From positions 3,634-67,633 of the forward strand of contig CAZPVP010000003.1 of NCBI GenBank assembly GCA_964590345.1: 64,000 nt of DNA. The letters run 5' to 3'. Below the pieces are notes generated by a model, which was given only the letters and a program-made list of their open reading frames with translations, made no database searches and was not told the DNA's origin. This document shows positions 737-37,906 of the stretch, one piece after another; within the stretch, counting starts at the first letter, position 1, and every line of letters starts with the position of its first letter. Source of the DNA: an uncultured Gammaproteobacteria bacterium. GTDB lineage: Bacteria > Patescibacteriota > Patescibacteriia > CAIXNZ01. Both the position numbers and the translations under genes were made by a program.

Positions 737-2743
737 ATGGAAGAAGAAAAAAAACAAAAACAAGAAATTAAATCAGATGTAACTCCTTTTGCGGTCACTA
801 CTTTTAGAAACAGGGAGCGCGTTTTTGGTATTAAAAAAGACGATCGCAGACGTCACGTTTATATTATAGGTAAGACCGGTATGGGGAAAACGACTTTAAT
901 TGAAAATATGGTTTATTCAGATATAATTTCTGGCAATGGAGTTTGTTATGTTGATCCTCATGGTGATACAGCAGAAAAGATACTTGAATGGATACCATCA
1001 AGTCGTATTAATGATGTGATATATTTTAATCCGGCTGATTTAGAATACCCGATATCTTTTAATGTTTTGGAAAAAGTAGCGCCAAAACATCGCCACTTAA
1101 TCGCTTCTGGTTTAGTGGGTGTTTTTAAAAAATTGTGGGCTGATTCCTGGGGACCAAGATTAGAGTATATTTTAAGAAATGCAATTTTAGCTCTTTTAGA
1201 GTATCCTGACAGTACATTACTCGGCATTAATAGAATGTTAGTTGATAAAGAATATCGTAAAAAAGTAGTCGCAAAAATTTCTGATCCAGTGGTTAAATCA
1301 TTTTGGGTTGACGAATTTCCAAAATGGAATGAACGTGTTTTGCAGGAAGTTGTTTCACCGATTCAAAATAAAGTCGGGCAGTTTTTGTCAACGGCTTTGA
1401 TTCGTAATGTCGTCGGACAAGTAAAATCATCTATTAATTTGCGCAAAGTTATGGATGAAGGCAAAATTTTAATTTTAAATCTTTCTAAGGGCAGGATGGG
1501 AGAAGATGCCTCTGCTTTGCTTGGTTCTATGATGGTGACAAAAATTCAATTGGCGGCGATGAGCCGAGTTGATATATCTGAAGAAGAAAGAAGGGATTTT
1601 TATCTTTATGTAGATGAATTTCAAAATTTTGCCACTGATTCATTTGCTGATATTTTGTCAGAAGCGCGTAAATACCGTTTAAATTTAATTATTGCCCATC
1701 AGTATATTGAACAATTGGGTGAAGTAGTTCAGCCCGCTGTTTTTGGCAACGTGGGTACTTTAATAGTTTTTCGTATTGGCGCGGCAGACGCTGAGTTTTT
1801 AGAAAAAGAATTTGACCCATATTTAACCATGCAGGATTTGGTTAATTTGCCCAAATACCATATTTATTTGAAATTAATGATTGATGGGGTTGCTTCTGAA
1901 CCATTTTCAGCAAAAGGCTTGCCTCCCGTTTATAGTGAATCTTTGGGCAATGAAGAAAAAGTTATTACTGTTTCCAGAGAAAGATATGCTAAGCCAAGAG
2001 ATACTGTTGAAGATAAAATTAAAAGATGGAGTGAAACAAGAGCTGAAGAACCGCCAAGGGGTTTTGAAGAGAGAGCGCCAAAAGGTGTAAGGCCAGGGCA
2101 AAGACCTGCGCCCTCATCTGTTCAGCCCCCAGCAAGTGAAGAGAAAAAAGCTAAGCATCAGAAGACAAAAAAAGGCTTCCCAGCCGTTTGTTATAACTGC
2201 GACAAAGAAATTGAAGTACCTTTTAAACCCGATAATGTTCGGCCAGTTTTTTGCAAAGAGTGTTTAAAAAATGCCCGTCGCGGTGAGATTAAAATTAAAA
2301 AGAAGCAGCCAGCTGAAGAGAAAGCTGAGGCTAAAGTTAAAGATGAAGGTGTTTCATTATCGCAAATAGAAAAAAAGACTTTTGATTTTAAAGGACGTTT
2401 GGTTGAGGCAAAGCCAGCTAAGAAAGAAGAGTCTAAAAAAGAAGAAAAACAAATTAAAAAAACAAAACAAAGAGAAGAGAAACCTATTCAAAAGACAGAG
2501 GAAAAAAAGGAAGAGAAATCCTCTGAAAAAGTAAAAGTTAAGCAAGAAGAAAAAACAGTTCAAAGGCTAGAAGGGGAAAGGGCAGAAAATAAGAGAGAAG
2601 AAGTGCCAGTTAAAAAAAAGGAAGAAATAGAGGAAAAGAGTGGAGTAGCTGAAGAAAAATCAGCTAAAAAACCCTCAGTTGATTTATTAGCCGGACAAGA
2701 TGAGGAAAAAGAAGTTAATGAAGGAGAAGTCATCGAATTATGA
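737..2743 (+). CDS. P-loop NTPase of the VirD4/TraG/TraD (type IV coupling protein) / DUF87-HerA-like clade, soluble (no TM segments), with a C-terminal CxxC..CxxC zinc ribbon and a long K/E-rich tail
   Basis: Walker A GKTGMGKTT, Walker B-like YLYVDEFQNF, and the LIIAHQ motif typical of TraG/VirD4/HerA-like ATPases. Zinc ribbon CYNCDKEIEVPFKPDNVRPVFCKEC. K/E-rich tail from about aa 480. Confidence 0.55.
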   Translation: MEEEKKQKQEIKSDVTPFAVTTFRNRERVFGIKKDDRRRHVYIIGKTGMGKTTLIENMVYSDIISGNGVCYVDPHGDTAEKILEWIPSSRINDVIYFNPADLEYPISFNVLEKVAPKHRHLIASGLVGVFKKLWADSWGPRLEYILRNAILALLEYPDSTLLGINRMLVDKEYRKKVVAKISDPVVKSFWVDEFPKWNERVLQEVVSPIQNKVGQFLSTALIRNVVGQVKSSINLRKVMDEGKILILNLSKGRMGEDASALLGSMMVTKIQLAAMSRVDISEEERRDFYLYVDEFQNFATDSFADILSEARKYRLNLIIAHQYIEQLGEVVQPAVFGNVGTLIVFRIGAADAEFLEKEFDPYLTMQDLVNLPKYHIYLKLMIDGVASEPFSAKGLPPVYSESLGNEEKVITVSRERYAKPRDTVEDKIKRWSETRAEEPPRGFEERAPKGVRPGQRPAPSSVQPPASEEKKAKHQKTKKGFPAVCYNCDKEIEVPFKPDNVRPVFCKECLKNARRGEIKIKKKQPAEEKAEAKVKDEGVSLSQIEKKTFDFKGRLVEAKPAKKEESKKEEKQIKKTKQREEKPIQKTEEKKEEKSSEKVKVKQEEKTVQRLEGERAENKREEVPVKKKEEIEEKSGVAEEKSAKKPSVDLLAGQDEEKEVNEGEVIEL

Positions 2744-2798
2744 AATCTGAATGCTGAAATCGGAGATTTATATTAGGGATAATTAATAATTTAAAATA

Positions 2799-3254
2799 AT
2801 GATTTATTTAGGTGCGGATCACGGCGGGTTTAAATTAAAACAAGCGATTATACAATATTTAGCTAACTTAAATCTGGAATATAAGGATTTAGGCAATTTT
2901 AAATTAGAAAAAGATGATGATTATCCTGATTACGGTTATAAAGTTGCCAAAGCAGTGGCTAAAGATAAAAATTCAAAGGGAATTTTAATTTGTGGTTCCT
3001 CTTTTGGAGTATGTATTGTGGCTAATAAAGTTAAAGGCATAAGAGCGGTTTCTGTTAGCACAGTTAATGATGCTAAATTATCGCGTGAGCATAATCATGC
3101 CAATGTTTTGTGCTTATCTGGTTGGGATACTTCAGTTATAAAAGCCAAAAAAATTGTCAAAGCCTGGTTAAATACCAAATTTTCTAACAAGCCTCGTCAT
3201 CGTCGCAGATTGAATAAAATTAAACAAATTGAAAATAAGGATTTTAAAGACTGA
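2799..3254 (+). CDS. rpiB: ribose-5-phosphate isomerase B (RpiB/LacAB family)
   Basis: N-terminus MIYLGADHGGFKLK and the ILICGSSFGVCIVANK motif characteristic of RpiB. Confidence 0.9.
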   Translation: MIYLGADHGGFKLKQAIIQYLANLNLEYKDLGNFKLEKDDDYPDYGYKVAKAVAKDKNSKGILICGSSFGVCIVANKVKGIRAVSVSTVNDAKLSREHNHANVLCLSGWDTSVIKAKKIVKAWLNTKFSNKPRHRRRLNKIKQIENKDFKD

Positions 3255-3294
3255 AGTCTTAATTTCGGGAGCAGTAACACACTCCCATACATAT

Positions 3295-3948
3295 ATGAAT
3301 ATTCAAATTGTTCCAACACTTTTAACCCATTCTTTAGCTGAATTTAAATCGAAATTAAAAAAACTTGAGCCTTATTTTGCATTAATCCAAATCGACTGTG
3401 CTGATGGGAAATTTGTGAAAAATAAAACTTTTTACGATATCAATAAGATTAAAAAAATCAGAACCAAAGTCAATTACGAGCTGCATTTAATGGTTAAAGA
3501 ACCATTAAAAGAGATTAAAAAATGGGAGAATTTTAAAAAAGTTAAAAAAATTATTTTTCATTATGAAGCATTAAAAAGTGATCAGCAAGTTTTGGAACTA
3601 ATTGAATATTTGAAAAAAATAAAAATTAAAGCTGGTTTGGCTGTTAATCCGGAAACAAAAGTTGAAAAGGTTAAAAAATTTATTCCCAAATTGGATTTGA
3701 TTTTATTTTTAGGTGTCAAACCTGGTTGGGGAGGACAAAAATTTCAGCCCAGAATTTTAAATAAAATTCGCAAAGTTAGAAAATTATATCCAAAACTTGA
3801 TATTGAAGTTGATGGGGGAGTTAATTTAAAAAATGCTAAACAAATTATTAAAGCGGGTGCAAATATTTTGGCGGCTGGCAGTTTATTTATTAAATCAGAA
3901 TATATTAGGCAAACAATTACTCAAATAAAGAATAAATTTAAAAAATAA
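3295..3948 (+). CDS. rpe: ribulose-phosphate 3-epimerase
   Basis: TIM-barrel Rpe pattern (IQIVPTLLTHS, IQIDCADGKFV, LHLMV, DIEVDGGVN). I moved the start to the in-frame ATG at 3295 because the track start at 3229 overlaps rpiB. Confidence 0.8.
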   Translation: MNIQIVPTLLTHSLAEFKSKLKKLEPYFALIQIDCADGKFVKNKTFYDINKIKKIRTKVNYELHLMVKEPLKEIKKWENFKKVKKIIFHYEALKSDQQVLELIEYLKKIKIKAGLAVNPETKVEKVKKFIPKLDLILFLGVKPGWGGQKFQPRILNKIRKVRKLYPKLDIEVDGGVNLKNAKQIIKAGANILAAGSLFIKSEYIRQTITQIKNKFKK

Positions 3949-3958
3949 CTTAAGCTTT

Positions 3959-4171
3959 ATGAAAAATGTAAATTACAATCTGATTAAGATGCTTCATAAC
4001 ACACTCGATGACTTGTGGCGTTTGGAAAATTTTTACATTAAAGATGCCAAAAAAATGAAATGTAAGGGCTGTCAGGCGGTTTATGAGCAAATGCGCGTAG
4101 AGTTGAAGAAGCACATTAATTTACTACGAGATGAGTTAGCTGATCATATCGAAAAAGGTAAATTTAAATAA
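3959..4171 (+). CDS. small hypothetical protein (70 aa) with a single CKGC motif
   Basis: ORF only. Confidence 0.3.
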   Translation: MKNVNYNLIKMLHNTLDDLWRLENFYIKDAKKMKCKGCQAVYEQMRVELKKHINLLRDELADHIEKGKFK

Positions 4172-4180
4172 TTAAATTTT

Positions 4181-4609
4181 ATGATTAATAAAAAAATATA
4201 TCGTTGTTCAGTCTGTGGCTATATTTATCGTGATAAAAATGCTCCGTGTGAGTGTCCTTTTTGCCATAATAAAGGTGTTTTTGAAGAAATACCCGAAGAT
4301 AAAATTAATTTTGAATTTTTTAAAGATGCTTGGACAAAACAGGTTAATTGGATGAACTCAACCAAATATCAGGATGAGATTATGTTAAATCCCGACGAAA
4401 AGATTTTAAAAGATTTAGCTGAGACTATGGGGAAATATTTAAAAGATAACAAACAAGCTTATTGTCCTTGTCGTCTTTTATCGGGGGATAAAGAAGCCGA
4501 TCGCAAAATAATTTGCCCTTGTTATTTGTATATGGGTGAAATTGAGACGCAAGGAAAATGCCATTGTTCGCTTTATTTGGTAAAAAATAAAAAGAAGTCT
4601 GAGATTTGA
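4181..4609 (+). CDS. rubredoxin-like domain fused to a ferredoxin:thioredoxin reductase catalytic-subunit-like (FTR-C) domain
   Basis: N-terminal CSVCG..CECPFC (rubredoxin-type CxxC/CPxC knuckles). C-terminal CPCR...CPC...CHC, the FTR catalytic-subunit signature. Confidence 0.6.
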   Translation: MINKKIYRCSVCGYIYRDKNAPCECPFCHNKGVFEEIPEDKINFEFFKDAWTKQVNWMNSTKYQDEIMLNPDEKILKDLAETMGKYLKDNKQAYCPCRLLSGDKEADRKIICPCYLYMGEIETQGKCHCSLYLVKNKKKSEI

Positions 4610-17958: not shown

Positions 17959-20955
17959 ATGACAAATAATTCGCTTATACTTAATTTTGAACAAAAAAAG
18001 GCAATTACCTTTAGTAAAGGCCCTCTTTTAATTGTGGCAGGGGCTGGTACAGGAAAGACGATGGTAATTACGCAGAGAATTCAGCATTTAATTTTAGATA
18101 AAAATGTTAATACCGATAGGATTTTGGCTCTAACTTTTACTGAAAAAGCAGCAGAAGAAATGGAAGAACGCGTTGATAAACTTTTGCCTTATGGTTATGT
18201 TGATTTATGGATTTCTACTTTTCATTCATTTTGCCAGAAAATTTTAGAGCAGCAGGCAATTGATATTGGTTTGCCTAATGGTTTTAAACTGCTGAATGAA
18301 ACTGCTCAATGGCTTTTAGTGCGCCAAAATTTAGATAAATTTGATTTGGATTATTACAAGCCTTTGGGCAACCCGACTAAATTTATTCAGGCCTTAATCC
18401 GCCATTTTTCCAGAGCTAAAGACGAAGAGGTTTATCCGGAACATTATCTTGAATATGCTCAGACACTTAAGCAAAATGCTGATTCATCTATGAGTGACGA
18501 ACTTTTAGATCAGGAAAGTTTACGTATTAAAGAAATTGCCGAAGCCTATCATGTTTATCAGCAATTGCTTTTAGATAATAATTATTTGGATTTTGGCGAT
18601 TTGATTAATTATACTTTAAAACTTTTTAGAACCAGGCCAAATATTTTAAAAAAATACCAAGAGCAGTTTGAATATATTTTGCTAGATGAGTTTCAGGATA
18701 CAAATTTTGCCCAGTATGATTTAGTTAAGCTTTTAGCTGGTCAAAAGAAAAATTTAACGGTAGTAGGGGATGATGATCAGTCAATTTATAAATTCAGAGG
18801 TGCTTCTGTTTCTAATATATTGCAGTTTAAAAAAGATTTTCCCAAAAGCCAGGAAATTGTTTTAACTATTAATTATCGATCCAATCAAAATATTTTAGAT
18901 TTAGCTTATAATTTTATTCAGTTAAATAATCCTAATCGTTTGGAATATCAATTAAGCAAGCAAAGCAAAATTGATAAAAAAGGTAAATTGAATAAGTTTG
19001 ATAAAAAATTAAAAGCCAATGAGAAAGGCGATGGCCTGATTGAACATATTCATGAAAAGAGCCTTGATTGGGAAGTTGAAGCAATAATTAAAAAGATAGC
19101 GGAATTAAAGAAAAAAGATAAAGAAGCGTCTTGGAGTGATTTTGCTATTTTGGTTAGAGCAAATGATTCTGCTAATCCTTTTATAAATTATTTACGAAGG
19201 ACAGATATTCCTTATCAATTTTTAGCTTTGCGCGGTTTATATAATAAGCCGGTTATCTTGGATATATTTGCTTATTTTAAGCTTTTGGATAATTATCATG
19301 AATCTCCGGCTGTTTTTAGAATTTTATGTTCGCCAGTAGTAGATATTTCTCAAGAAGATATTGTTAAAATTTGTCATCAGGCAAATTGGAAAACCAAATC
19401 AATTTATGAAGTTTTGCAGGAAATTTCAACTTTAAAGGGGATAGCTAAAAAAACTGTTTCTGAAATTAATTTTCTGCTTGGCTTGATTACAAAACACAGT
19501 CAAATGGTTAAGGAAAAAAGTGTGGGAGAAGTTTTAAAAGCTTTTTTAGAAGATTCAGAATATTTGGAAAAATTAGTTAAGCAGGATGAATATGAAAGCA
19601 ATCAGGCCATTTCTTACCTTAATCAGTTTTATAAAAAAATTAAAAAATTTGAAGAATCAGTGGCTGACCCGAATTTAAAAGCTTTTATGCAGGAAATTGA
19701 TTTAGAGCTGGAAGCAGGGGAGCAGGGGCCATTAAGCTTTGATATAGAAGCAGGTCCTGAAATGGTTAAAATCATGACAGTTCATGCAGCCAAAGGGTTA
19801 GAATTTAAATATGTTTTTATACCTAATTTAGTTGATCGCCGTTTTCCCACTAATGAAAGAAAAGAGCCAATTGAATTGCCTGACGAATTAATTAAGGAAA
19901 TTTTGCCTGAGGGGGATATTCATTTGCAAGAGGAGCGCAGGCTTTTTTATGTGGCTATGACTCGGGCTAAGCATGGTTTATTCTTGACCTCAGCAGATGA
20001 TTATGGCGGAGCCAGAAAAAAGAAAATTTCAAGATTTTTAGAGGAATTAGCTGAAACAAATAAAAATTTTAATTTAAGCAAAAAATCATTAAGTTCTGCT
20101 CAATCTCTGGCAGTGTTAAAGGTTGCAGAAAGTGATAAGGGTGTCAAAAATGAAAAGCCTGAATATGAATTACCCAGTCGTTTTTCTTATTCGCAATTGG
20201 CTGCTTTTTCAAAGTGTCCTTATCAGTATAAATTAGGTTTTATTTTACGAGTGCCGGTTTTTGGCAAAGCTGTTTTTTCTTATGGCAAAAGCATGCATAA
20301 AACCCTGGAAGAATTTTTTAAAATGGTTTTAGCAAAAGAGGCCAAGAAACAGGCTGATTTATTTGAAGGCAAAGAAAAAGATAAAAAGAAAATAAAGGAT
20401 TTGGTGAAATTTGATGAATTGATAGAACTTTTAAAAACTCATTGGCTTGATGAATGGTATAAAGATAAAGAACAGCGGGAAAAGTACTATAAACAAGCTC
20501 AAAAAAGTTTAAAAGTTTTTTATGAGCAAGTTAAAGATCAAGTTTGTAAAACCGAAGCAGTTGAAAAGTATTTTAATTTAAAAATAAATGATTTTACAAT
20601 TAAGGGCGTTATAGATAGAATTGACCGTTTGGAAAATAATGCGATTAATATTATTGATTATAAAACTGGTACGCCCAAAGAACAGGATAAATTAAGCTTG
20701 GAAGACAAAATGCAGCTTTTGATTTATCAAATTGCGGCCGAAGAGATTTTGCAGGAGAAAGTCAATAATTTGATTTTTTATTATCTTGATGATAATTCAA
20801 CAGTTGAATTTTTGGGCACTGAAAAAGAAAAAGAAAAAGTTAAGCAAGACATAATTAAAGAAATTGAGGCGATTAATAATTCTAATTTTGCAGCCACGCC
20901 TGGCTGGGTCTGTAAATTTTGCGATTTTAAAAATATTTGCGAATATAAGGTTTAA
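17959..20955 (+). CDS. UvrD/PcrA/AddA-like superfamily 1 helicase fused to a C-terminal Cas4/RecB-like PD-(D/E)XK nuclease carrying a 4-Cys Fe-S cluster
   Basis: Walker A VAGAGTGKT. Nuclease motifs GVIDRIDRL..IIDYKTG. Cys pattern CPYQ...CKFCDFKNIC (1+3 Cys as in Cas4/AddB). Confidence 0.85.
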   Translation: MTNNSLILNFEQKKAITFSKGPLLIVAGAGTGKTMVITQRIQHLILDKNVNTDRILALTFTEKAAEEMEERVDKLLPYGYVDLWISTFHSFCQKILEQQAIDIGLPNGFKLLNETAQWLLVRQNLDKFDLDYYKPLGNPTKFIQALIRHFSRAKDEEVYPEHYLEYAQTLKQNADSSMSDELLDQESLRIKEIAEAYHVYQQLLLDNNYLDFGDLINYTLKLFRTRPNILKKYQEQFEYILLDEFQDTNFAQYDLVKLLAGQKKNLTVVGDDDQSIYKFRGASVSNILQFKKDFPKSQEIVLTINYRSNQNILDLAYNFIQLNNPNRLEYQLSKQSKIDKKGKLNKFDKKLKANEKGDGLIEHIHEKSLDWEVEAIIKKIAELKKKDKEASWSDFAILVRANDSANPFINYLRRTDIPYQFLALRGLYNKPVILDIFAYFKLLDNYHESPAVFRILCSPVVDISQEDIVKICHQANWKTKSIYEVLQEISTLKGIAKKTVSEINFLLGLITKHSQMVKEKSVGEVLKAFLEDSEYLEKLVKQDEYESNQAISYLNQFYKKIKKFEESVADPNLKAFMQEIDLELEAGEQGPLSFDIEAGPEMVKIMTVHAAKGLEFKYVFIPNLVDRRFPTNERKEPIELPDELIKEILPEGDIHLQEERRLFYVAMTRAKHGLFLTSADDYGGARKKKISRFLEELAETNKNFNLSKKSLSSAQSLAVLKVAESDKGVKNEKPEYELPSRFSYSQLAAFSKCPYQYKLGFILRVPVFGKAVFSYGKSMHKTLEEFFKMVLAKEAKKQADLFEGKEKDKKKIKDLVKFDELIELLKTHWLDEWYKDKEQREKYYKQAQKSLKVFYEQVKDQVCKTEAVEKYFNLKINDFTIKGVIDRIDRLENNAINIIDYKTGTPKEQDKLSLEDKMQLLIYQIAAEEILQEKVNNLIFYYLDDNSTVEFLGTEKEKEKVKQDIIKEIEAINNSNFAATPGWVCKFCDFKNICEYKV

Positions 20956-21081
20956 CGATTTAATTTTAGAATAAAGCGAGATAACTATTGTCTTTTTCGC
21001 TTTTTATTTTTAGGAAATTTTTTAATTTTAAGGTATAATATAAATATAAATTTTAAAGTCCAAATAAATTTAAATTAGTAA

Positions 21082-23094
21082 ATGTTCAAACAAAAGAAAA
21101 ATAATAAAATTTGGATAGTTTTTTGTATTTTTTTAACTTTGTTTTTTGTTGGCAGATCAGCAAGCCCGACTTTAGCCAGTTGGGGATATATGGATAATAT
21201 TACCCAAGGCAGCGAAAATATAACAGATAGTGCCAATAATCATGATGATGCTGTTTTAAGAATTTATAATGATAAGCCCAGATTAGCTTGGATTGATGAA
21301 ACAACAGGTGAAGTTTATTATACGCAATGGTCAGGTTCATCTTGGACTTATGCTGATGGCAGCACCAGTGGTTATGAAAATATTTCTAATTTAGGAGCGG
21401 GTAAAAGCTATAATATGAGAATGGAAATTGATTCTAACGGTTATCCAAGAATAGTTTTTGATGAGGCTGTTTCAAATGATTACATTTATTATATCCAATG
21501 GTCAGGTAGCTCATGGACACATGCTGATGGCTCTACTGCTGGTAAAGAAATAATAGTCAGTGATAAAGATGCTAGTAATGCTTTAGCTTTAGCTTTGGAT
21601 GATAATGACAAGCCGCATGTAGCCTGGAGTTATGAAGTAGTTGATTTTGAAATTTATTATACAAAGTGGAATGGTTCTGGTTGGACATATGCTGATAGTA
21701 CAACAAATGGCTATGAGCAGGTTTCTGATTTGCCGGATACAATTGAACAATATCCTACTTTAAAAATATATAACAATAATCCTCGAATAATCAGTGGTGC
21801 TTTTGACAATGGTTATCAAATACAATATATTCAGTGGTCGGGTAGTTCGTGGACACATGCCGATGGCTCTACTGCTGGCTGGGAAAATATAGCTGATCCT
21901 AATTCTGAATCAAACAGTCCCCAGATGGAATTGGCTTCAAATGGCTATCCAAGGGTTATTTGGGTTGACGCGATAAGCCCTAGTGATTTTGATATATATT
22001 ATTCACAATGGTCAGGATCTGCCTGGACATATGCCGATGGCACTACTACTGGTTATGAAAATGTTCATGATAATGATAAGCTTTCATATTTATCACCGCG
22101 TCAGACCGCAATGGAAGGAAGCAATATTGCACTTGATCAAAATGACAGGCCAATGATTGTTTGGCGTAACGATGCTGATGGCAATTTTGATATATATTTT
22201 ACAAAATGGTCGGGTAGTGCTTGGACAAAAGCTGATGGTACAGCTGGTTATGATAATCTTTCTGATTCAACGACCTTTAATTATATTCCCAGAATTGAGT
22301 TGGATTCAGTTGATAATCCCGTAGTTTCTTGGAGCCACAATGCATCTGGCAATAGCGATATATATTATACGCAATGGACACCGGGGGCTGGCGAGACGGT
22401 TTGTGGATCGGGGATAACAGATTGTTGGACAACAGCAGAAGAGACTGTTTCAGGTGTTGATAATGTTTCAAATAATTCAGGAGATTCAATAATTGATGAC
22501 ATGGCTTTAAATTCAGTCAATGCAGCTTATTTTGTCTGGCATGATGATACTGATGGTAATTACGATATATATTTTAGCAGGTGGCTTTATGATCAAGAAG
22601 ATCAGGTAAATATTACTGCCGATGTAGAACCATCATTAACTTTCAATATCTCTTCAGCTATTTGTAATTTGGGAACATTTTCAGCCTCAACAATCAAAAC
22701 TTGCAATTATTATACTGAAGTGGATACTAATGCCAGCGGTGGTTATATCGCTTATATTAAAGAAGATGGTAATTTACGAAATGCGACAAATAGCATTAAT
22801 GACGTGACTGATAATGAAGTAACGGCAGGCAGTGAGGAATATGGAGTTGCAACCAGTGATTCTGATTATGCTTCATTAGATATAAATCAGCAGGTAACAG
22901 ATTGCGCCAGTTTAGATGGAAGTTCAACAGCCTCTGCATCAACTTTAACAACCAGTGATCAGTTATTTGCTATAGCTAATCAGCCTGTTAGCAGCGATAC
23001 TGTTCATCTCTGTTTCTCTGCAGCTATTTCAGGTGATACACCTGCCGGGGCTTATTCTAATACTGTAACAATAACTGTAATTGGCAATTTTTAG
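21082..23094 (+). CDS. secreted protein with eight ~57-aa WSGSxWT repeats (putative beta-propeller) plus a C-terminal chaperone-usher-pilin-like (SCPU/CsuA/B-like) domain
   Basis: Signal peptide. Repeats YYTQWSGSSWTYADGSTSGYENIS x8, one carrying a Cys-loop insertion. C-terminus VEPSLTFNISSAICNLGTF..TCNYYTEV..GYIAYIKEDGNLRN...TPAGAYSNTVTITVIGNF. Confidence 0.6.
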   Translation: MFKQKKNNKIWIVFCIFLTLFFVGRSASPTLASWGYMDNITQGSENITDSANNHDDAVLRIYNDKPRLAWIDETTGEVYYTQWSGSSWTYADGSTSGYENISNLGAGKSYNMRMEIDSNGYPRIVFDEAVSNDYIYYIQWSGSSWTHADGSTAGKEIIVSDKDASNALALALDDNDKPHVAWSYEVVDFEIYYTKWNGSGWTYADSTTNGYEQVSDLPDTIEQYPTLKIYNNNPRIISGAFDNGYQIQYIQWSGSSWTHADGSTAGWENIADPNSESNSPQMELASNGYPRVIWVDAISPSDFDIYYSQWSGSAWTYADGTTTGYENVHDNDKLSYLSPRQTAMEGSNIALDQNDRPMIVWRNDADGNFDIYFTKWSGSAWTKADGTAGYDNLSDSTTFNYIPRIELDSVDNPVVSWSHNASGNSDIYYTQWTPGAGETVCGSGITDCWTTAEETVSGVDNVSNNSGDSIIDDMALNSVNAAYFVWHDDTDGNYDIYFSRWLYDQEDQVNITADVEPSLTFNISSAICNLGTFSASTIKTCNYYTEVDTNASGGYIAYIKEDGNLRNATNSINDVTDNEVTAGSEEYGVATSDSDYASLDINQQVTDCASLDGSSTASASTLTTSDQLFAIANQPVSSDTVHLCFSAAISGDTPAGAYSNTVTITVIGNF

Positions 23095-23114: not shown

Positions 23115-24434
23115 TTGATTATGCTTGATTTTTTTTTAAAGCCGAGAGGATCTTTTTATATAATTTTTGTTTTTTTAATATTTTTTTTATTGCCGCAAAA
23201 GTCAGTTGCTTCAAGCTTGCATACTTTAAGCGATAAAATGAGCCGCCATGCGCCGTCTACGCCGGCTGACCATGAAATAAAGTTTACTACGCCAAGCGGG
23301 ATTAATAATTCAGGGGAATATCTAAGGATTATTTTTGACAGCGGCTTTGATTTGTCATCAATACAATATACTGATATTGATTTATACCATGGACCGATAA
23401 CTGGTTTTGAAAAGAGTGAAGTTTTGAGACCGACAGCCGTGGAGACTGCCTGGGGAGTTAATGTCTCCGGTAATCAAATTGATTTTACTCATCCGACAAA
23501 TAATGCAAATGGCGATATTTTAGCTAATGATAAAGTAGTAATTAGGATTGGTTTGAATGCTCAAAATGGACAATATCAAATAATAAATCCAAGTACAACC
23601 GGTTCAAAAATTATAACTTTAAGCGGTAATTACGGCGATTCTGGTAAATTAGCCGTGGCCATTTTTGAAGATCAGCTCGTTGTCGGTGGCCAAACAGAAA
23701 ATTCACCCCCCAATCCTGTTACTTTATATTCGCCGTCAAATATTACCGCTAATTCTATGGTTTTGAGCTGGAGCAAAAATATTGATATTGATTTTGATCG
23801 CTACGAACTTTATATGGCTGAAAATACAGGAGTAACTAATGTCAATGGCTCTTTGGTTTGCCTTAATTCGCTTAATTCAGAAACGTCTTGTATTGTAAGT
23901 TCTTTGACTGGTGATAGGGAGTATTTTTTTGTGCTTTATGTTTATGATACAGAAGGGCTTTATTCTGCCTCAAATGAAGTGATGGCAAAAACGTTAAGTG
24001 TCGGAGGCGGTGCGCCACCACAGCCAGCAATGCCAACGCTTGATGAGCGTCTTTGTCCCATATTTTTGTCAAACACTTTATTGTCAGGAACCAAACCATT
24101 AGGAACAATTATTTTTATTAATGGTTCTGCTGAAGGCATAGATTATCCTACTTTAACAAGTTGGAATTCATTAGTTGATTTGAATTTAGGAAATAATTTG
24201 TTTCTAATTTGGGCGCGTGATAATTATGGCCAAAATAGCGAAGTTTTAAATGCTACGGTTACCCGTTGTGAAGTCGGCGATACAGACTGCAACGGTATTG
24301 TAGATGATTTTGATTTATCTGGATTGGCTTATCATTGGAATACCGCTTGGTGTTACGCTGATTTTAATGAAGATAGTATTGTAGATGATTTTGATTTATC
24401 TGGATTGGCCGCACATTGGGATAAAATATATTAA
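23115..24434 (+). CDS. secreted protein with the shared N-terminal domain of this locus (F.SDFDLS..TDID pattern), an FN3-like domain and a C-terminal dockerin-like duplicated Ca-binding repeat
   Basis: Signal peptide. FN3-like PVTLYSPSNITANSMVLSWS..YELYMAEN. Dockerin-like DTDCNGIVDDFDLSGLAYHW / DFNEDSIVDDFDLSGLAAHW. Confidence 0.55.
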   Translation: MIMLDFFLKPRGSFYIIFVFLIFFLLPQKSVASSLHTLSDKMSRHAPSTPADHEIKFTTPSGINNSGEYLRIIFDSGFDLSSIQYTDIDLYHGPITGFEKSEVLRPTAVETAWGVNVSGNQIDFTHPTNNANGDILANDKVVIRIGLNAQNGQYQIINPSTTGSKIITLSGNYGDSGKLAVAIFEDQLVVGGQTENSPPNPVTLYSPSNITANSMVLSWSKNIDIDFDRYELYMAENTGVTNVNGSLVCLNSLNSETSCIVSSLTGDREYFFVLYVYDTEGLYSASNEVMAKTLSVGGGAPPQPAMPTLDERLCPIFLSNTLLSGTKPLGTIIFINGSAEGIDYPTLTSWNSLVDLNLGNNLFLIWARDNYGQNSEVLNATVTRCEVGDTDCNGIVDDFDLSGLAYHWNTAWCYADFNEDSIVDDFDLSGLAAHWDKIY

Positions 24435-29736: not shown

Positions 29737-30138
29737 ATGACAAAGTCAATAATTAAAGGGAAAGAAAGATTATTAATAGTAATAATTTTAATTATTGCTC
29801 TTAATTTTATTTTATTATCTATTGGTTATGGTCAAACAAACGTCAATATACGGGCTTATGTTCCTGAGACAGAAGAAAATAAGAGATTTTCCAATAATCA
29901 AATTAAACAAGAAAAACCGACTACTAAGGAAAATAAATACCAGTATTTTTTTGAAAAATTTTGGCTGACCCAAACTGATAAAGAAACTAATGCAATAGAG
30001 CAAGAAGAAGTGCAGACAATCCACGACAAGATAGTTAGCCATTTTTTTATGTGGTTAATTTTGTTTGTTATTGCCATAATCAGCTTTTTTGTCTTGCGAA
30101 TAATTGATCATTATATAATAAGCATTTTTCGGTCATGA
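29737..30138 (+). CDS. small membrane protein with two TM helices, translationally coupled (ATGA overlap) to the next pilin-like gene
   Basis: Hydrophobic segments LLIVIILIIALNFILL and FFMWLILFVIAIISFFVL. Confidence 0.45.
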   Translation: MTKSIIKGKERLLIVIILIIALNFILLSIGYGQTNVNIRAYVPETEENKRFSNNQIKQEKPTTKENKYQYFFEKFWLTQTDKETNAIEQEEVQTIHDKIVSHFFMWLILFVIAIISFFVLRIIDHYIISIFRS

Positions 30139-32377: not shown

Positions 32378-34423
32378 TTGGTAATTTTAATATTCAATTT
32401 AATGAAGATATATTCTTTTAAAAAATTTTTTTATAAAAAAATAATTTTTAGTATTGTTGTCCTTTTTTTTATTTTTGCTTTTGCTGGTACAGTTTATGCT
32501 TTTTGGGGGCATATGGATACAAAAGATACTGGCTATGAGATTTTACACAATAATAGTGTTGATGAGCTGAAAATTAAGGTTGAAATTTATGATGACAAGC
32601 CCAAGTTGGTTTGGCAGACTGATCTGGGAGCGCAGTATTGGGGCGATATTTATTATACTCAATGGTCAGGTACTGAGTGGACAAAGGCTGACGGCACGTC
32701 CGGCTATGATAATTTGACGGTTTCATCCGGAGGAAATCATGACGAGCCATATATTGAGCTTGATTCAGCTGGTAATCCGAAAATTATATTTAGAGATAAA
32801 AACTTGGGGAAAATTATTTATACACAATGGTCGCCAAATGCTTGCGGCGGAAGCGGCTGCTGGACAAAGGCGGACGGCACAACTTCATCGCCAAGCTATG
32901 ATACTATTGGCGTTTCTGATGCTGTTTTGGATTTTGCTCTGGATAGCAATGATAACCCCCATATTATTTGGCGTTATAATGACGGAGGAGGAATGGATGT
33001 CTATTATACCAAATGGAATGGTTCCAACTGGACTTATGCTGACGGCACAACTCTTGGTGAAGAAAAGATTGATTTGAATGGCGGAGCGATTATTTGCCAT
33101 ATTGAAATTTATAATGACAAGCCGATAATTATTACTGATGACAGTATTACTGGCAATTCTGAAATTCAATATATACAATGGTCAGGTTCAGCTTGGACAA
33201 ATGCTGATGGGATAACGGTTGGTTGGGAGAATATATCTAATACTGCCACTAATTCAGCCAGATCAAGATTTAAAATTGACAGCTTGGGCAATATAAAAGT
33301 GGTTTGGACAGAGGAAACCGCTAGTGATAATGAAATTTATTACACGCAATGGACAGTGAGTCATAATGACTGGACCAAAGCAGACGGGATAACCTCAGGC
33401 TGGGAAAATGTTTCTGATAATTCCGGTGATTCAAGTATTTACGGTATAAATACAATTATGCTTGATAATAATGATAATCCGGGATTGGTTTGGTTGGATG
33501 ACACAAGCGGCAATAGCAATCTCTATTATTCGCAATACGTTTCAGGTACAGGCTGGACAAAAGCGGATGGTTCAACATTAGGCTGTGATAATGTTTCAGA
33601 TAGTTCGGGGGATAAGAAACTTGTTAGGATGGCTTTTGATTCTACTAATAATCCTAATATTGTTTGGGGTGATGATTTTAGCGGTAATTATGAGGTATAT
33701 TTTAGTCAATATGTAGATTCGGTCGGCTGGACAGAAGCTGACAAAACAACAGTAGGTAAGGAAAATATATCAAATACTTCAGGTACATCTTCGGTTCAGA
33801 GTATATTATTAAATTCAATTAATGAGCCCCATGTCTTTTGGTATGATGATACGGATGGCGATGATGATGTTTATTTTTCACGCTGGACAGAAACCAATAT
33901 TGGACAGGTAAATATAACCGCTGATGTTGAGCCTTCATTGAGTTTGACTTTACCAGGTGGTCAGACAGCTAATTTAGGATATTTTTCCTCCCAAAGTTTG
34001 CAAACGGCTGTTTATCAAAGTGTTATTAGCACAAACGGTTCTTTGGGCTATACTGCTTATATTAAAGATGACGGCGATTTGAGAAATGAAACCAATTCCG
34101 TTAGCGATACCAGCGGTACAATCAGTTATGGCGATGAATCTTATGGTGTTGTGACAACAGAAGGAGATACAGTTGATATAACTAAAATTATTGATACAAA
34201 TAACGATGAACAATATAATTCAACAGACTGCACTTTATTGGATGGTGAGGCGACCTCACTTAGCGCAACAGCGCTGACCAGTGGTTTGCAGTCATTTGCC
34301 AAATCAAATGGTCCTGTCAGCGATGACAATGTCTATTTATGTTTTATAGTGGCAATCTCTGGCTCAACCCCTGCCGGTGCTTATTCAAGCACTGCAACAA
34401 TTACTGTGGTTGGTAATTTTTAA
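32378..34423 (+). CDS. secreted protein with eight WSGSxWT-type repeats plus an SCPU/CsuA/B-like C-terminal module (first Cys pair lost), paralogue of the 21082 gene
   Basis: Repeats IYYTQWSGTEWTKADGTSGYDN..., one with a CGGSGCWT insertion. C-terminus VEPSLSLTLPGG..GYTAYIKDDGDLRN...TPAGAYSSTATITVVGNF. Confidence 0.6.
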   Translation: MVILIFNLMKIYSFKKFFYKKIIFSIVVLFFIFAFAGTVYAFWGHMDTKDTGYEILHNNSVDELKIKVEIYDDKPKLVWQTDLGAQYWGDIYYTQWSGTEWTKADGTSGYDNLTVSSGGNHDEPYIELDSAGNPKIIFRDKNLGKIIYTQWSPNACGGSGCWTKADGTTSSPSYDTIGVSDAVLDFALDSNDNPHIIWRYNDGGGMDVYYTKWNGSNWTYADGTTLGEEKIDLNGGAIICHIEIYNDKPIIITDDSITGNSEIQYIQWSGSAWTNADGITVGWENISNTATNSARSRFKIDSLGNIKVVWTEETASDNEIYYTQWTVSHNDWTKADGITSGWENVSDNSGDSSIYGINTIMLDNNDNPGLVWLDDTSGNSNLYYSQYVSGTGWTKADGSTLGCDNVSDSSGDKKLVRMAFDSTNNPNIVWGDDFSGNYEVYFSQYVDSVGWTEADKTTVGKENISNTSGTSSVQSILLNSINEPHVFWYDDTDGDDDVYFSRWTETNIGQVNITADVEPSLSLTLPGGQTANLGYFSSQSLQTAVYQSVISTNGSLGYTAYIKDDGDLRNETNSVSDTSGTISYGDESYGVVTTEGDTVDITKIIDTNNDEQYNSTDCTLLDGEATSLSATALTSGLQSFAKSNGPVSDDNVYLCFIVAISGSTPAGAYSSTATITVVGNF

Positions 34424-34429
34424 TAAGTT

Positions 34430-37400
34430 ATGTTTTTTAAATTTAAAAAATTAAAAAAATTAATAAAGTTTTATTATTCAAAGCTTGGCAAGCCGCTGAA
34501 GATTTTTTTAGTGGCTTTAGTAATTGGTATTCAATTGGCTTTATTGATTAGTTATTGCTATTCAATTTATAAAAACAAGATATTTGCCGGTGAGGGGATT
34601 AGGGATACTTTAACTTACCAAGGTAAAATTACTAATGCTGATGGCGTGCCGCCGCCTGATGGTCAGTATAATATGCGTTTTAAAATTTATGACCAGGCCA
34701 CTAACGGTACATTGTTGTGGACAGAAATTTGGGATAGCACAAATCAGGGAGTAGCTGGTAGCAAAGTAACTGTGACCGAAGGCGTTTTTAATGTTGAATT
34801 AAATTCCTTATGCGGCAATTGGGTAGGTGACTGCGCTTCAAATGGCGGCGTTACTTTTGCCCAAGACAGCTTTTATTTACAAGTTGAATTGGATTATGAC
34901 GGCAATGGCACTTATGAGGAAATTTTTACTCCCAGAAAAAGATTTACTGCCACGCCTTATTCAATGAATACTGATAAGCTTGATGGTTATGATTCAGGTG
35001 ATTTTGTTTTAAAATCAGGCAGTGAAATGACTGGTTCGCTGACTGCGCCTCAATTTATTGACAGTTCGCTTTTGGCTTATTATCAGTTTAATGGTGATGC
35101 TGATGATAGCAGTGCTAATACTTTAGACGGGATATTACAAAATAGCGCTGATGTGAGCAATGATGTTTTAGAACTGGACGGTGTAGACCAGTATGTTTCC
35201 GTTAGTGACGATGATTTGTTAAGTTTTGGCAATGGCACGGTTGATTCGGCTTTTACTGTTTCGGGCTGGATTAAGATGACTGACGCGACTAATTTTAATA
35301 TTATTTCCAAAGGTATATATAATACTGATGGCGAATATTTATTTTATATTGATAATACTGATAAAATTAGGATCCGTCTTAATGATGAAAGCGTGACGGA
35401 TTGCTACATCGGCCGTTTGTATGACACGGCTTTAACTGATTATGAAGGCAGCTGGATTAATTTGGCGGCAACTTATGACGGCAGTGGCGCGTCTTCAGGC
35501 TTGAAAATCTATTTAAACGGTAACCAAGTTGATAATGCTAATAATGAAAGCAATTATAGTTCTTATGTGGCTATGGAAAATTTGACTAGTAATTTATATA
35601 TAGGCAAATATGCCAGCACTTACAGTAAAGGCAAAATTGATGATTTAAAATTATATAATCGTGAATTAAGCGCCGATGAAATTAAAAGGCTGTTTGAAAG
35701 TGAAGCAAGGAGTCAGCTACACTCTAATAAAATTACAACTAAAGATGTTTATTTTGAAAAAAACGAAGAAGGTGAAACAGAAGGCGGTTATTTAACTTGG
35801 GATAATATTAATAATCGCTTCAAATTTAGCTCCGAGTTATATTCGCCAAATAGCCTGCCTTATTTTAATAACAGTATTGGCGATCGTGATTATGCTTATT
35901 TGGCTGATGATAATAAAGTTTTAGCTTATGATTTTCATGAGTCAGTTGGCGCAACCGTGTCAGATTTGGAAGGTAATTCTAACGGCACATTAAACGGTGA
36001 TGCTGACTGGACGAATCTTGGCTATATAGGCTATGGCTTAAAATTTGATGATGATTCTGATTATATTTCTTTTGCCGATCCCGGCTTATCTTCAACTCAA
36101 GGAACAGTAGAAATGTGGGTTAAATTAAATGATGTAACAACCTCTGATACAAATTATTTATTAAGAATGTGGTCAGGAGCTTCCAATGAAATTGCTATAT
36201 ATAAGCAAAATGCCGCTGATTTATATGTGGAAGCAGGGGATAGCAGCGCTATTGATACGGGCTGGGATTTCCCTGATACCAGCTGGCATCACATTGTTTT
36301 GAGCTGGGATTCAACAGCTATTGACGTTTATGTTGACAGTGTTGATTTGAGTTTAACCGATACTTATACAAGTCTAGACGTTAGTTTGTTCTCCAATTTT
36401 TATTTGGGTTCTGATTCAGCAGCCAGTACAGCCTTAAATGGCATTATGGACAGCGTGGCGCTTTATGACGATGTTTTGACTGCGACTGAAATAGCCAATC
36501 ATTATAATGCCGCTTTTAACAATCTTTATCTTATTAATAATTTAAACGACGGCAATATCAGCGCAACTTTGGCAGATTTTTACAGCTTTTCAGCTACGGT
36601 TAACGGACGGCGGGAGAAAAAAGATCCTGTTTATTATAATGACGATACCCGGACTTTGGCCCTTGGTTTTTCAGAAGGTTATGGCTCAAGCACCGCCAGT
36701 CAAGTTAATTCATTGAGTGCCGGTATTAATGGTGCCAGCTGGACTAGGCAGGGTTATTATGGTTATGGCCTGGAGTTTGACGGCAGTGATGATTATTTGT
36801 TAGTAGAAGATAATGATTATATTGATATTGACACTGAAGATTTTTCAATTGAGTTTTGGGTTAAAGGCGATGATAACATTAGCCAATCTGGCAACAGAAT
36901 TTTGGAAAAAGTTAGCGGTTCAACCGGATTTAGAGTTTATTATACTACTGATGACAGAATAACTTTTGCTATTGGCGATGGCACTAATTCGGTTGCTGGC
37001 TCGCCAAGCTCAGGTGGAGACATGTCAAAGGGCCAATGGGAGCATATGATTTTGACTTTTGACAGAGATGGTGATGCTACGATTTATAATGATGGCAATG
37101 AAGTTTACTCTGTAGATATTTCAAGCGTTACTGGCAGTTTGAGCAATGACTCTGATTTATATATTGGCAAAGATGCCAGCGGTAATTTATTTAAAGGAAA
37201 ATTAGACAGCATTATTATTTATAAAAATCAATTGTTAAATTCTTTTGACGGTTACAGTCGATCAACTAATAGTCAGGAATTTTTTATTAATAATACGAGA
37301 ACAGCCTCAACTGGCCAAGCTGCACTTGGAGGTATAAATCAAAGTTCTGGGGGCTGGGGCGGTGTTTTTTATATTGCTAATACTGATAATACAAGCGGTT

Positions 37401-37906
37401 ATCCTTTAAGCGTATGGAATGAGGCTTCTTATACTTCTGGCTCTGATACCGTTTATAACTTAATAAGTTTTATGTATCAGGCTGGTCAGTCATCATTTGG
37501 CAATTTAATCTGGGACAGTACAAATTCGCAGTTTGTTTTTGACCAAAGCATAAAAACCAATGGAGATTTAACTGCTGATTATATAAAAACAGTGGGGAGT
37601 GATACAAGCGATAATGAATTTTTAGCCCATGATGTTATCAGGCATACGCTTACTTCAACCGATATAACTAACAGGTATTTTACAGAAGCCTGGAGCAAGG
37701 CAACCACCAAAAAAGTTGTTAATATTCATACAGTTACTGTTGACGAAAGTGATGCCAATGATAAGCTGACTACAGATGATTGGACAAATTCTGGCGCAAC
37801 TGACAATGGTTCGGCTTATGACGGAACTAATATTACAATTACGGATCAAAACAATGCCTGGGAAGAAAACGATATTGTTACTATTTATATTGTTTATGAA
37901 AAATAA
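34430..37906 (+). CDS. 1158-aa N-terminally membrane-anchored protein with three LamG/concanavalin-A-like lectin domains
   Basis: N-terminal TM FLVALVIGIQLALLISYCYSIY. Three repeats of the LamG pattern (DGxDQYVSV..FTVSGWIK..YIGK..GKIDDLKLYNRELSADEI, with similar blocks at about aa 500-690 and 750-930). Confidence 0.6.
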   Translation: MFFKFKKLKKLIKFYYSKLGKPLKIFLVALVIGIQLALLISYCYSIYKNKIFAGEGIRDTLTYQGKITNADGVPPPDGQYNMRFKIYDQATNGTLLWTEIWDSTNQGVAGSKVTVTEGVFNVELNSLCGNWVGDCASNGGVTFAQDSFYLQVELDYDGNGTYEEIFTPRKRFTATPYSMNTDKLDGYDSGDFVLKSGSEMTGSLTAPQFIDSSLLAYYQFNGDADDSSANTLDGILQNSADVSNDVLELDGVDQYVSVSDDDLLSFGNGTVDSAFTVSGWIKMTDATNFNIISKGIYNTDGEYLFYIDNTDKIRIRLNDESVTDCYIGRLYDTALTDYEGSWINLAATYDGSGASSGLKIYLNGNQVDNANNESNYSSYVAMENLTSNLYIGKYASTYSKGKIDDLKLYNRELSADEIKRLFESEARSQLHSNKITTKDVYFEKNEEGETEGGYLTWDNINNRFKFSSELYSPNSLPYFNNSIGDRDYAYLADDNKVLAYDFHESVGATVSDLEGNSNGTLNGDADWTNLGYIGYGLKFDDDSDYISFADPGLSSTQGTVEMWVKLNDVTTSDTNYLLRMWSGASNEIAIYKQNAADLYVEAGDSSAIDTGWDFPDTSWHHIVLSWDSTAIDVYVDSVDLSLTDTYTSLDVSLFSNFYLGSDSAASTALNGIMDSVALYDDVLTATEIANHYNAAFNNLYLINNLNDGNISATLADFYSFSATVNGRREKKDPVYYNDDTRTLALGFSEGYGSSTASQVNSLSAGINGASWTRQGYYGYGLEFDGSDDYLLVEDNDYIDIDTEDFSIEFWVKGDDNISQSGNRILEKVSGSTGFRVYYTTDDRITFAIGDGTNSVAGSPSSGGDMSKGQWEHMILTFDRDGDATIYNDGNEVYSVDISSVTGSLSNDSDLYIGKDASGNLFKGKLDSIIIYKNQLLNSFDGYSRSTNSQEFFINNTRTASTGQAALGGINQSSGGWGGVFYIANTDNTSGYPLSVWNEASYTSGSDTVYNLISFMYQAGQSSFGNLIWDSTNSQFVFDQSIKTNGDLTADYIKTVGSDTSDNEFLAHDVIRHTLTSTDITNRYFTEAWSKATTKKVVNIHTVTVDESDANDKLTTDDWTNSGATDNGSAYDGTNITITDQNNAWEENDIVTIYIVYEK

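Follow-up and report, generated by a model that had tools for sequence, protein, structure and literature searches.

Two candidate propeller-headed pilin genes in a Pam operon

The stretch analysed here (the window) is 64,000 nucleotides of contig CAZPVP010000003.1, from an uncultured member of the Patescibacteriota, with a G+C content of ca. 33%. Two of its large open reading frames (ORFs), here called P1 (670 amino acids) and P2 (673 amino acids, counted from the ATG), encode eight repeats of ca. 57 amino acids, followed by a short linker and a C-terminal domain related to that of the pilins of Pam, the pilus system of the Candidate Phyla Radiation (CPR) described by Troman et al. 2026 (bioRxiv 10.64898/2026.03.03.709456). 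Judged by sequence and by predicted structure, both are Pam pilins in which the beta-sandwich N-terminal domain has been replaced by a beta-propeller. Around them lie genes for three canonical pilins, a PamT-like protein, a chaperone-like protein and a candidate terminator, which together appear to form a Pam operon (Table 1). P1 is identical to the database protein P0001 and P2 corresponds to P0005, while the closest ortholog of P1 is P0002.

Both proteins appear to start with a Sec-type signal peptide. That of P1 has a basic N-region, a hydrophobic core and small residues at positions −3 and −1, is predicted by AlphaFold2 to be helical from residue 8 to 24, and ends in A32, which is nearly invariant among the homologs.

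Table 1. Features of P1, P2 and the genes around them, in window coordinates.
Feature	Position	Strand	Basis and remarks
P1, predicted propeller-headed Pam pilin gene	21082..23094	+	ORF; 8 repeats + Pam C-terminal domain
P1 putative Sec-type signal peptide	21082..21177	+	aa 1–32, ...SPTLA/SW; read from sequence
P1 predicted eight-bladed beta-propeller	21178..22584	+	aa 33–501, including N-terminal velcro strand SWG (aa 33–35); alignment, AlphaFold2, Foldseek
P1 Cys-loop insertion	22378..22431	+	TPGAGETVCGSGITDCWT; C441, C448; C-D hairpin of blade 7
P1 inter-domain linker DQVNITADVE, candidate donor strand	22600..22629	+	motif common to two-domain pilins of the operon
P1 Pam pilin C-terminal domain	22630..23091	+	aa 517–670; NF058581 E 3.7e-11; 56% identity to 346-aa pilin
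439-aa protein, pilin-type N-terminal domain, candidate chain terminator or anchor	23115..24434	+	no C-terminal pilin domain
765-aa Ig-rich protein, C-terminal transmembrane helix	24385..26682	+	Big_9, Big_13, He_PIG, OmpL47-barrel
PamT-like single-domain tip pilin, 233 aa	26670..27371	+	NF058579 CPR_pilus_PamT E 1.6e-47, 162 bits (cut-off 240)
Canonical two-domain Pam pilin, 346 aa	27575..28615	+	NF058581 E 3.8e-13; AlphaFold2
Chaperone-like protein, 327 aa	28658..29641	+	signal peptide, two beta domains, C-terminal transmembrane helix; weak fn3_5
Pam pilin, 344 aa	30135..31169	+	NF058581 E 1.8e-6; linker + C-terminal domain alignment
Pam pilin, 362 aa	31197..32285	+	NF058581 E 6.7e-11; linker + C-terminal domain alignment
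P2, second predicted propeller-headed Pam pilin gene	32402..34423	+	8 repeats; NF058581 E 9.4e-6; in-frame TTG upstream at 32378
P2 predicted eight-bladed propeller	32501..33886	+	repeat alignment; including N-terminal FWGHMD velcro segment
P2 Cys-loop insertion	32831..32866	+	SPNACGGSGCWT; C149, C154; blade 2
P2 linker GQVNITADVE + Pam C-terminal domain	33902..34420	+	NF058581; P1/P2 alignment
1158-aa LamG x3 fibre-like protein, closes cluster	34430..37906	+	Laminin_G_3 E 3.4e-63; Bdello_MAT_N E 3.2e-9

Repeats of P1 and P2

The repeat core (I/V)YYTQW lies at amino acids 78, 135, 191, 247, 305, 371, 427 and 496 of P1 (nt 21313–22584) and at 84, 139, 201, 256, 313, 375, 433 and 491 of P2 (nt 32648–33886; P2 residues are counted from nt 32399), with 55–69 amino acids between successive cores. 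A local hmmsearch with a hidden Markov model (HMM) of the repeat found exactly eight units in each protein. The mean pairwise local BLOSUM62 score between units was 104 in P1 and 91 in P2, compared to 26 ± 5.4 for shuffled units. Fourteen full units gave the consensus IYYTQWSGSxWTxADGxTxGxENIS...LDSNxNPxIxWxDxxxG, in which W11, T12 and A14 are invariant.

An earlier note on this DNA, made from the sequence alone, had described eight tandem repeats of ca. 57 amino acids in both proteins. The unit length, the motif and the coordinates given there agree with the HMM result, the consensus and the core positions, and the count of eight stands, but the eight are not plain copies – P1 consists of seven full units and an eighth that is cut off after YFSRW. 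The missing part of the eighth unit, 'SxWTxADGxTxGYENIS', is found at the mature N-terminus of P1, where SWGYMDNITQGSENIT copies the SSWTYADGSTSGYENIS segment, with a score of 49 compared to a maximum of 40 for shuffled sequence. Two residues of this stretch, W34 and M37, are invariant among the 11 full-length homologs from which residue conservation was counted.

No tandem repeat of ca. 171 bp was detectable at the DNA level, meaning that the protein repeats are ancient and diverged and did not result from recent duplication or an assembly artefact. P1 and P2 are collinear blade by blade at 43% identity; this bears out the duplication in a second paralog that the note had seen, and shows that the whole gene was duplicated. 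The P2 gene also encloses two further ORFs, the first in a different frame (32739–33077, + strand, 112 amino acids) and the second on the opposite strand (32885–33178, − strand, 97 amino acids), and both are probably spurious.

Predicted propeller fold and ring closure

The AlphaFold2 model of P1 (me6c169ba3508, built on 38 homologs) has a mean predicted local distance difference test score (pLDDT) of 83.3 and a predicted template-modelling score (pTM) of 0.72, and most of residues 40–500 have a pLDDT above 90. Blade geometry was taken from the DSSP secondary-structure string of this model, which contains eight successive sets of three long strands with a short fourth strand at the WT motif. 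P1 is thus predicted to form a propeller of eight four-stranded blades, one per repeat, in agreement with the eight-bladed propeller that the note had thought probable. The eighth set lacks the fourth strand, and a strand is present at residues 33–35 (SWG), directly after the signal peptide. Together with the SWGYMDNITQGSENIT copy and the invariant W34 and M37, this strand indicates that the ring is closed by a 3+1 'velcro', and suggests that blade 8 gets its last strand from the mature N-terminus.

When the model was searched with Foldseek, the top matches in the PDB were the seven-bladed Photorhabdus lectins PLL and PHL (E ca. 1e-10, probability 1.0), with template-modelling (TM) scores, normalised to the lectin, of 0.61–0.65 (PDB 5c9o, 5mxg, 6rg2, 8q83). 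Further matches were GH145, PL42 and PL24/25 enzymes (E 1e-9 to 1e-7), the RSL lectin and the NanB sialidase. A sequence search of the PDB with a profile of the propeller-pilin family found no real relatives (best E 0.14).

Variation across 128 blades from 16 propeller pilins is greatest at positions 7, 9–10 (C-D loop), 27–35 (distal D-A loop) and 49–53 (B-C loop). Insertions are concentrated in the C-D loop, where the Cys loop of up to 12 amino acids is found, and in the D-A loop (up to 13 amino acids). Under standard propeller topology, on which the assignment of faces in P1 rests, the chain would exit once strand C of blade 8 is complete, on the side of the A-B and C-D loops, so that the face with the D-A and B-C loops would point away from the C-terminal domain.

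One blade of each protein carries the inserted disulfide-type Cys loop that the note had pointed out, in blade 7 of P1 (TPGAGETVCGSGITDCWT) and in blade 2 of P2 (SPNACGGSGCWT). In every case the insertion falls in the C-D hairpin, after the W..G turn and ahead of the WT strand, while the blade differs by protein – blades 1, 2, 5 and 6 in P0003, blades 1 and 7 in P0009, and in P0002 the same blade 7 as in P1. By length the loops fall into two classes, ACxGSGCWT and GAGxxVCGxxxxDCWT. A Cys loop was present in 18 of the 195 family proteins examined, and 13 of these 18 were among the 23 proteins with a Pam C-terminal domain (described below), so the variant is enriched in propeller pilins. Paired cysteines are also used by PamA and PamB (bioRxiv 10.64898/2026.03.03.709456).

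C-terminal pilin module and linker

The C-terminal parts of both proteins match NF058581 (CPR_Pam_pilin_C) over positions 3–148 of the 148 in the profile, with 43 bits (E 3.7e-11) for P1 and 26 bits (E 9.4e-6) for P2. Residues 507–670 of P1 are 56% identical (E 1e-53) to the linker and C-terminal domain of the adjacent 346-aa pilin. The pilin-like module that had been noted downstream of the repeats is well founded on both counts. Where the 346-aa pilin has a beta-sandwich as its N-terminal domain, P1 is predicted with high confidence to have the propeller.

In an alignment of the six window proteins with this domain, the linker motif [DQ][QS]V.[IL].[AG].V, followed by [EDN]P[SE]L, is found in P1, P2 and the three canonical pilins, and not in the PamT-like protein. 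The five linkers read QVNITADV (both P1 and P2), QVTISGTV, SVSLQAEV and QVEISASV. In the monomer model of P1, residues 506–514 have a pLDDT below 50 and are the only internal stretch of at least nine such residues outside the C-terminal domain. PamA and PamB donate the strand that joins their domains to the C-terminal domain of the neighbouring subunit, while PamT, which lacks the donor strand, was modelled as a distal cap (bioRxiv 10.64898/2026.03.03.709456). By analogy with PamA and PamB, the linker of P1 and P2 is a probable donor strand. The linkers of P1 and P2 (QVNITADVEPSL) are identical to each other and unlike those of the other pilins, which suggests that the two proteins may compete for the same acceptor and take up equivalent positions in the filament.

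Since P1 and P2 keep both the donor linker and the acceptor domain, they would be polymerisable subunits and not obligate tip caps. The earlier note had placed the repeats where a tip adhesin or lectin domain would be expected. Their position is not that of the tip adhesin of a chaperone-usher pilus – the head of P1 and P2 takes the slot of the N-terminal domain in a two-domain Pam pilin, the linker is kept, and the operon has a separate PamT-like cap.

Repeat family and its known relatives

A 57-position profile of the 14 full units matched 7,524 cluster representatives (clusters of 50% identity) at E ≤ 1e-3, 1,856 at E ≤ 1e-10 and 212 at E ≤ 1e-30. Repeat counts over the family peak at 7 and 8, and a second group with ca. 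12–14 repeats suggests double propellers. Domain content was judged on a sample of 60 representatives. The Pfam family BNR_4 (PF15892) was found above its gathering score in 41 of these, with a best E of 3.7e-23, TIGR04275 in 17, the PDIAV lipoprotein model in 15 and PorZ in 8; partner modules included type IX secretion system (T9SS) tails, CWB2/S-layer, PKD and DUF11. Three of the 60 matched NF058578 (PamR, an RbmA-like pilus terminator), meaning that the propeller has been fused to more than one Pam component. One representative in the family matches NF052497, the BT3686-type rhamnosidase model.

P1 and P2 themselves matched no Pfam family at E ≤ 10, including BNR_4, PF02012 and PQQ. Assignment to the Asp-box (BNR, PF02012) repeats of sialidases was rejected, as the regular expression S.D.G..W found none in either protein and PF02012 gave no match at that threshold, and assignment to the PQQ-repeat propellers was rejected because no PQQ family appeared in the same Pfam output. 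Four homologs (P0003, P0004, P0006 and P0015) score 35–56 bits on BNR_4, over its gathering threshold of 27.3, through repeated hits on a single blade-sized segment (profile positions ca. 212–267). As far as sequence goes, the tie of P1 and P2 to BNR_4 is at the level of the superfamily only. On TIGR04275, P1 scores 14.7 bits (E 0.019, cut-off 85) and P2 has no match, and 18 of the 38 P1 homologs match this model, with a best E of ca. 2e-18.

The repeat of P1 and P2 thus appears to be a divergent branch of a huge, mostly uncharacterised superfamily of surface propellers, one that current Pfam models cover only partly. With 7,524 related representatives, and with BNR_4 in 41 and TIGR04275 in 17 of the 60 sampled, it is not the unrecognised and unnamed family for which it had been taken. 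No well-described family whose function is known gave a clear match – there is no Asp-box, no PQQ repeat, and only the superfamily-level link to BNR_4. The characterised members of BNR_4 are seven-bladed enzymes, the GH145 rhamnosidase BT3686 and the PL42 lyase FoRham1 (PMC8377490). A survey of fibrillar adhesins reported a cluster that overlaps BNR_4 and has an 'ambiguous', possibly adhesive, function (PMC9210967).

The surrounding operon

The gene directly downstream of P1 encodes a 439-aa protein whose residues 22–189 are homologous to the N-terminal domain and start of the linker of the pilin at 30135 (34% identity, E 2e-17). This is followed by an fn3 domain (E 8e-8) and two dockerin-like calcium loops, DTDCNGIVDDFDLSGL and DFNEDSIVDDFDLSGL, for which the Dockerin_1 match is only E 0.028. 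The protein has neither a Pam C-terminal domain nor a transmembrane helix, and looks like a chain terminator or anchor unlike the published PamR; no protein in the window matched the PamR model. The reading frame of the 765-aa protein rich in immunoglobulin-like (Ig) domains overlaps the end of this gene by 50 nt. A cohesin-like N-terminus of the 765-aa protein was considered as a partner for the dockerin-like loops and was rejected for want of Pfam support.

The PamT-like protein also scores 136 bits on NF058581, over the cut-off of 55. The 346-aa pilin is modelled by AlphaFold2 as two beta-sandwich domains with a pLDDT of 91.6, and Foldseek matched it to Ig-type adhesins, to components of chaperone-usher systems (including chains that contain PapG) and to RbmA. 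No Pam structure was found in the searched copy of the PDB by sequence or by fold, and the best E for a profile of the canonical pilin was 0.19. The 327-aa protein had no match in NCBIfam, and from the published description of PamC and PamD it is a putative chaperone. The 1158-aa protein has three LamG/pentraxin-like domains and an N-terminus that matches the fibre domain of the Bdellovibrio 'mosaic adhesive trimer' (NF053851), and probably corresponds to the 'tail fibre-like' protein that Troman et al. reported next to pam operons.

Directly upstream of P1, a 998-aa protein (17959–20955, + strand) is a fusion of a UvrD/PcrA-type helicase and a PD-(D/E)XK nuclease of the Cas4/AddB-like type. 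The gap of 126 nt before the start of P1 contains an AT-rich 25-bp tandem repeat, TTTAAATTTTAAAGTACAATATAAA, in 2.3 copies (21020–21076), which could be a regulatory or promoter element. Promoter and terminator signals near P1 were not found beyond chance, and an Rfam scan of the window gave no match.

Distribution and possible head swapping

Three other loci share this gene order and carry one to three propeller pilins each – a metagenome contig from the ENA with three tandem propeller pilins (L001), a Ca. Falkowbacteria locus (L002) and a Ca. Parcubacteria locus (L003). A LamG fibre-like gene directly follows the last propeller pilin in L001 (16240–19707) and L002 (7626–10994), as it does in the window. 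In L003 an ORF of similar size to the helicase-nuclease gene (1001 amino acids, 1424–4429) is in the same place. The locus search from the 11-sequence alignment used a motif of the C-terminal domain and returned two GTDB loci, a number that under-samples the distribution at the genome level. A word-index search for homologs of the linker and C-terminal domain by themselves gave four short proteins and missed the protein from which the query was taken, so it says nothing on distribution. Named homologs of the canonical pilin are found in Buchananbacteria (66% identity), Falkowbacteria, Parcubacteria, Uhrbacteria and Woykebacteria, which extends the Pam system to lineages of the Buchananbacteria and Falkowbacteria type. 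Judged by these named homologs, the window comes from an ultrasmall CPR bacterium close to such lineages.

Repeats and a Pam C-terminal domain occur together in 23 cluster representatives, nearly all with 8 repeats and a length of 620–714 amino acids. Other proteins with the Pam C-terminal domain have different N-terminal sides. P0233 (597 amino acids) and P0283 have LamG/Toxin_R_bind_N Pfam matches there, and P0202 (509 amino acids) and P0239 (438 amino acids) have longer N-terminal regions in which no Pfam domain was found. The LamG heads suggest that the N-terminal domain is an exchangeable head across CPR lineages, so that a propeller or a LamG domain appears able to stand in for the sandwich of a Pam pilin.

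Possible function of the propeller pilins

We consider it probable, at roughly 60%, that P1 and P2 are adhesin heads that bind glycans or other envelope components and are displayed on a Pam pilus. They would be secreted as pilus subunits in which a propeller of ca. 470 amino acids replaces the usual sandwich head of ca. 170 amino acids, followed by the short linker QVNITADV and the Ig-like C-terminal domain. As in PamA and PamB, the linker would complement the subunit before it, on the distal side, by entering its C-terminal domain, while the C-terminal domain of P1 or P2 would take up the linker of the subunit that follows. The propeller would thereby be held out from the filament, where it could bind glycans of the host bacterium or other components of its envelope, and P1 and P2 would be host-recognition subunits, two diverged paralogs with different specificities. 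This reading is favoured because lectins are the best fold matches of P1, which also agrees with the lectin or adhesin role suggested in the note; because the blades are uniform; because related propellers are attached to many unrelated surface anchors; because there are two to four diverged paralogs per operon; and because other proteins with the Pam C-terminal domain bear a LamG head.

Several observations weigh against it. The NF058581 scores of P1 and P2 (43 and 26 bits) are under the curated cut-off of 55. The identity of P1 to lectins of known structure is 10–14%, and those lectins are seven-bladed, while those members of BNR_4, the nearest Pfam family, that have been characterised are enzymes and not lectins. 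A head of this bulk might not suit the rise of ca. 51 Å in PamA/PamB filaments if P1 or P2 homopolymerised. The analysis shows the repeats, the predicted fold, the homology of the C-terminal domain, the setting in the operon and the recurrence of this architecture in other loci and proteins; that P1 and P2 enter a filament, where they sit in it and that they bind a ligand is what we infer.

The enzymes could instead be taken as the guide to function, in which case the propeller would be a glycoside hydrolase or polysaccharide lyase borne on the pilus and would cut the capsule, exopolysaccharide or cell-wall glycans of the host. Relatives match BNR_4, whose characterised members GH145 BT3686 and PL42 FoRham1 are structurally close to the PL24/PL25 ulvan lyases, the same enzymes are in the Foldseek list at E 1e-9 to 1e-7, and one representative of the family matches the NF052497 rhamnosidase model. 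We nevertheless regard this as unlikely. P1 and P2 have no BNR_4 match at E ≤ 10, the BNR_4 matches of their homologs cover a single blade-like segment and not a whole enzyme, the best structural matches are lectins, and there are 8 blades where the enzymes have 7. All eight blades are also near-identical in pattern; such uniformity is typical of propellers that are lectin-like or serve as scaffolds, while the blades of enzymes tend to be differentiated. Another reading is a mainly architectural role, in which a bulky head would make part of the filament thicker or stiffer, or act as a spacer in it, with no specific ligand. The N-terminal domain of PamA and PamB gives much of the inter-subunit interface (bioRxiv 10.64898/2026.03.03.709456), the linker and C-terminal domain are kept, so that P1 and P2 could polymerise, and the conserved positions of the repeat look structural. 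A propeller of 470 amino acids in place of a sandwich of 170 would, however, be costly to a reduced genome, the several diverged paralogs per operon and the alternation with LamG fit ligand diversity better, and the occurrence of the family propeller on many unrelated surface anchors is what would be expected of a binding module; an architectural role is accordingly judged quite unlikely. Least probable is that P1 and P2 are not pilus subunits at all, and that the Pam-like C-terminal domain is a surface-anchoring or chaperone-recognition tag of a free surface lectin. The sub-threshold NF058581 scores, the indirect case for incorporation and the presence of the same propeller with many other anchors would all allow this, but the linker and C-terminal domain are 56% identical to those of a neighbouring, bona fide two-domain pilin, the motif of the linker is conserved, and the genes lie inside the operon, in a position that is conserved in the three other loci.

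A more specific form of the adhesin reading, which we hold only tentatively and think somewhat doubtful, is that propeller pilins are the host-recognition determinants of Pam pili in this branch of the CPR and, since they keep donor as well as acceptor elements, may polymerise into a filament segment, a multivalent 'lectin brush' with one propeller per ca. 5 nm. An architecture of this kind is not known from chaperone-usher, sortase or type IV pili. Host range would then be written in the diverged paralogs, of which an operon has two to four, in the exchangeable propeller and LamG heads and in the mobile Cys-loop variant of the blade, and the host specificity of uncultured episymbionts could be read from sequence. 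The Pam pilus was described only in 2026. Troman et al. made no mention of a propeller, lectin or adhesin, and stated how the pilins contact the host as an open question (bioRxiv 10.64898/2026.03.03.709456). The propeller pilins, with 23 representatives, are a concrete and testable candidate for an adhesive subunit.

Comparison with known systems

The BNR_4 enzymes share the propeller fold of P1 and P2, with Foldseek E-values of 1e-9 to 1e-7 and an identity of 11–14%, and the PL24/PL25 ulvan lyases are structurally related to them. Catalysis relies on His48 in GH145 and on a His/Arg/Tyr set in PL42 and PL24. These enzymes are single domains with seven differentiated blades and an SxDxGxTW motif, whereas P1 and P2 have eight uniform blades without an Asp-box. 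The PLL/PHL lectins, the best structural matches, have highly regular, Trp-rich blades like those of P1 and P2, but are seven-bladed, soluble and secreted, with sugar sites between the blades, whereas P1 has eight blades and a pilin module; identity is 10–13%. TIGR04275 (beta_prop_Msarc) and SBBP (PF06739) describe a short blade repeat with a D..GN.YV.G/W core in archaeal and bacterial surface proteins, and the score of P1 on TIGR04275, 14.7 bits against a cut-off of 85, falls short of that family.

Among pili, the closest system is that of Ca. Mycosynbacter amalyticus, in which PamA, PamB and PamE have paired cysteines in the C-terminal domain, as do P1 and P2. The N-terminal domain of PamA and PamB is a nine-strand beta-sandwich, where P1 and P2 have the predicted propeller. 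The terminator candidate in the window has dockerin-like loops, whereas PamR has a transmembrane helix, and the main lineages of Troman et al. are Saccharimonadia and Microgenomatia, whereas the relatives found here are from Buchananbacteria, Falkowbacteria, Parcubacteria and Uhrbacteria.

FimH and PapG resemble P1 and P2 in having a receptor domain N-terminal to an incomplete Ig-like pilin domain, and in donor-strand exchange. They lack a donor strand and are found only at the tip, whereas P1 and P2 keep the linker and the operon has its own PamT-like cap. The lectin domain of FimH and PapG is a beta-barrel or jelly-roll, not a propeller, and chaperone-usher pili have an usher and an outer membrane, neither of which belongs to the Pam system here. 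P1 and P2 are best described not as a categorically new element but as an undescribed combination of a known pilus system with a known propeller superfamily.

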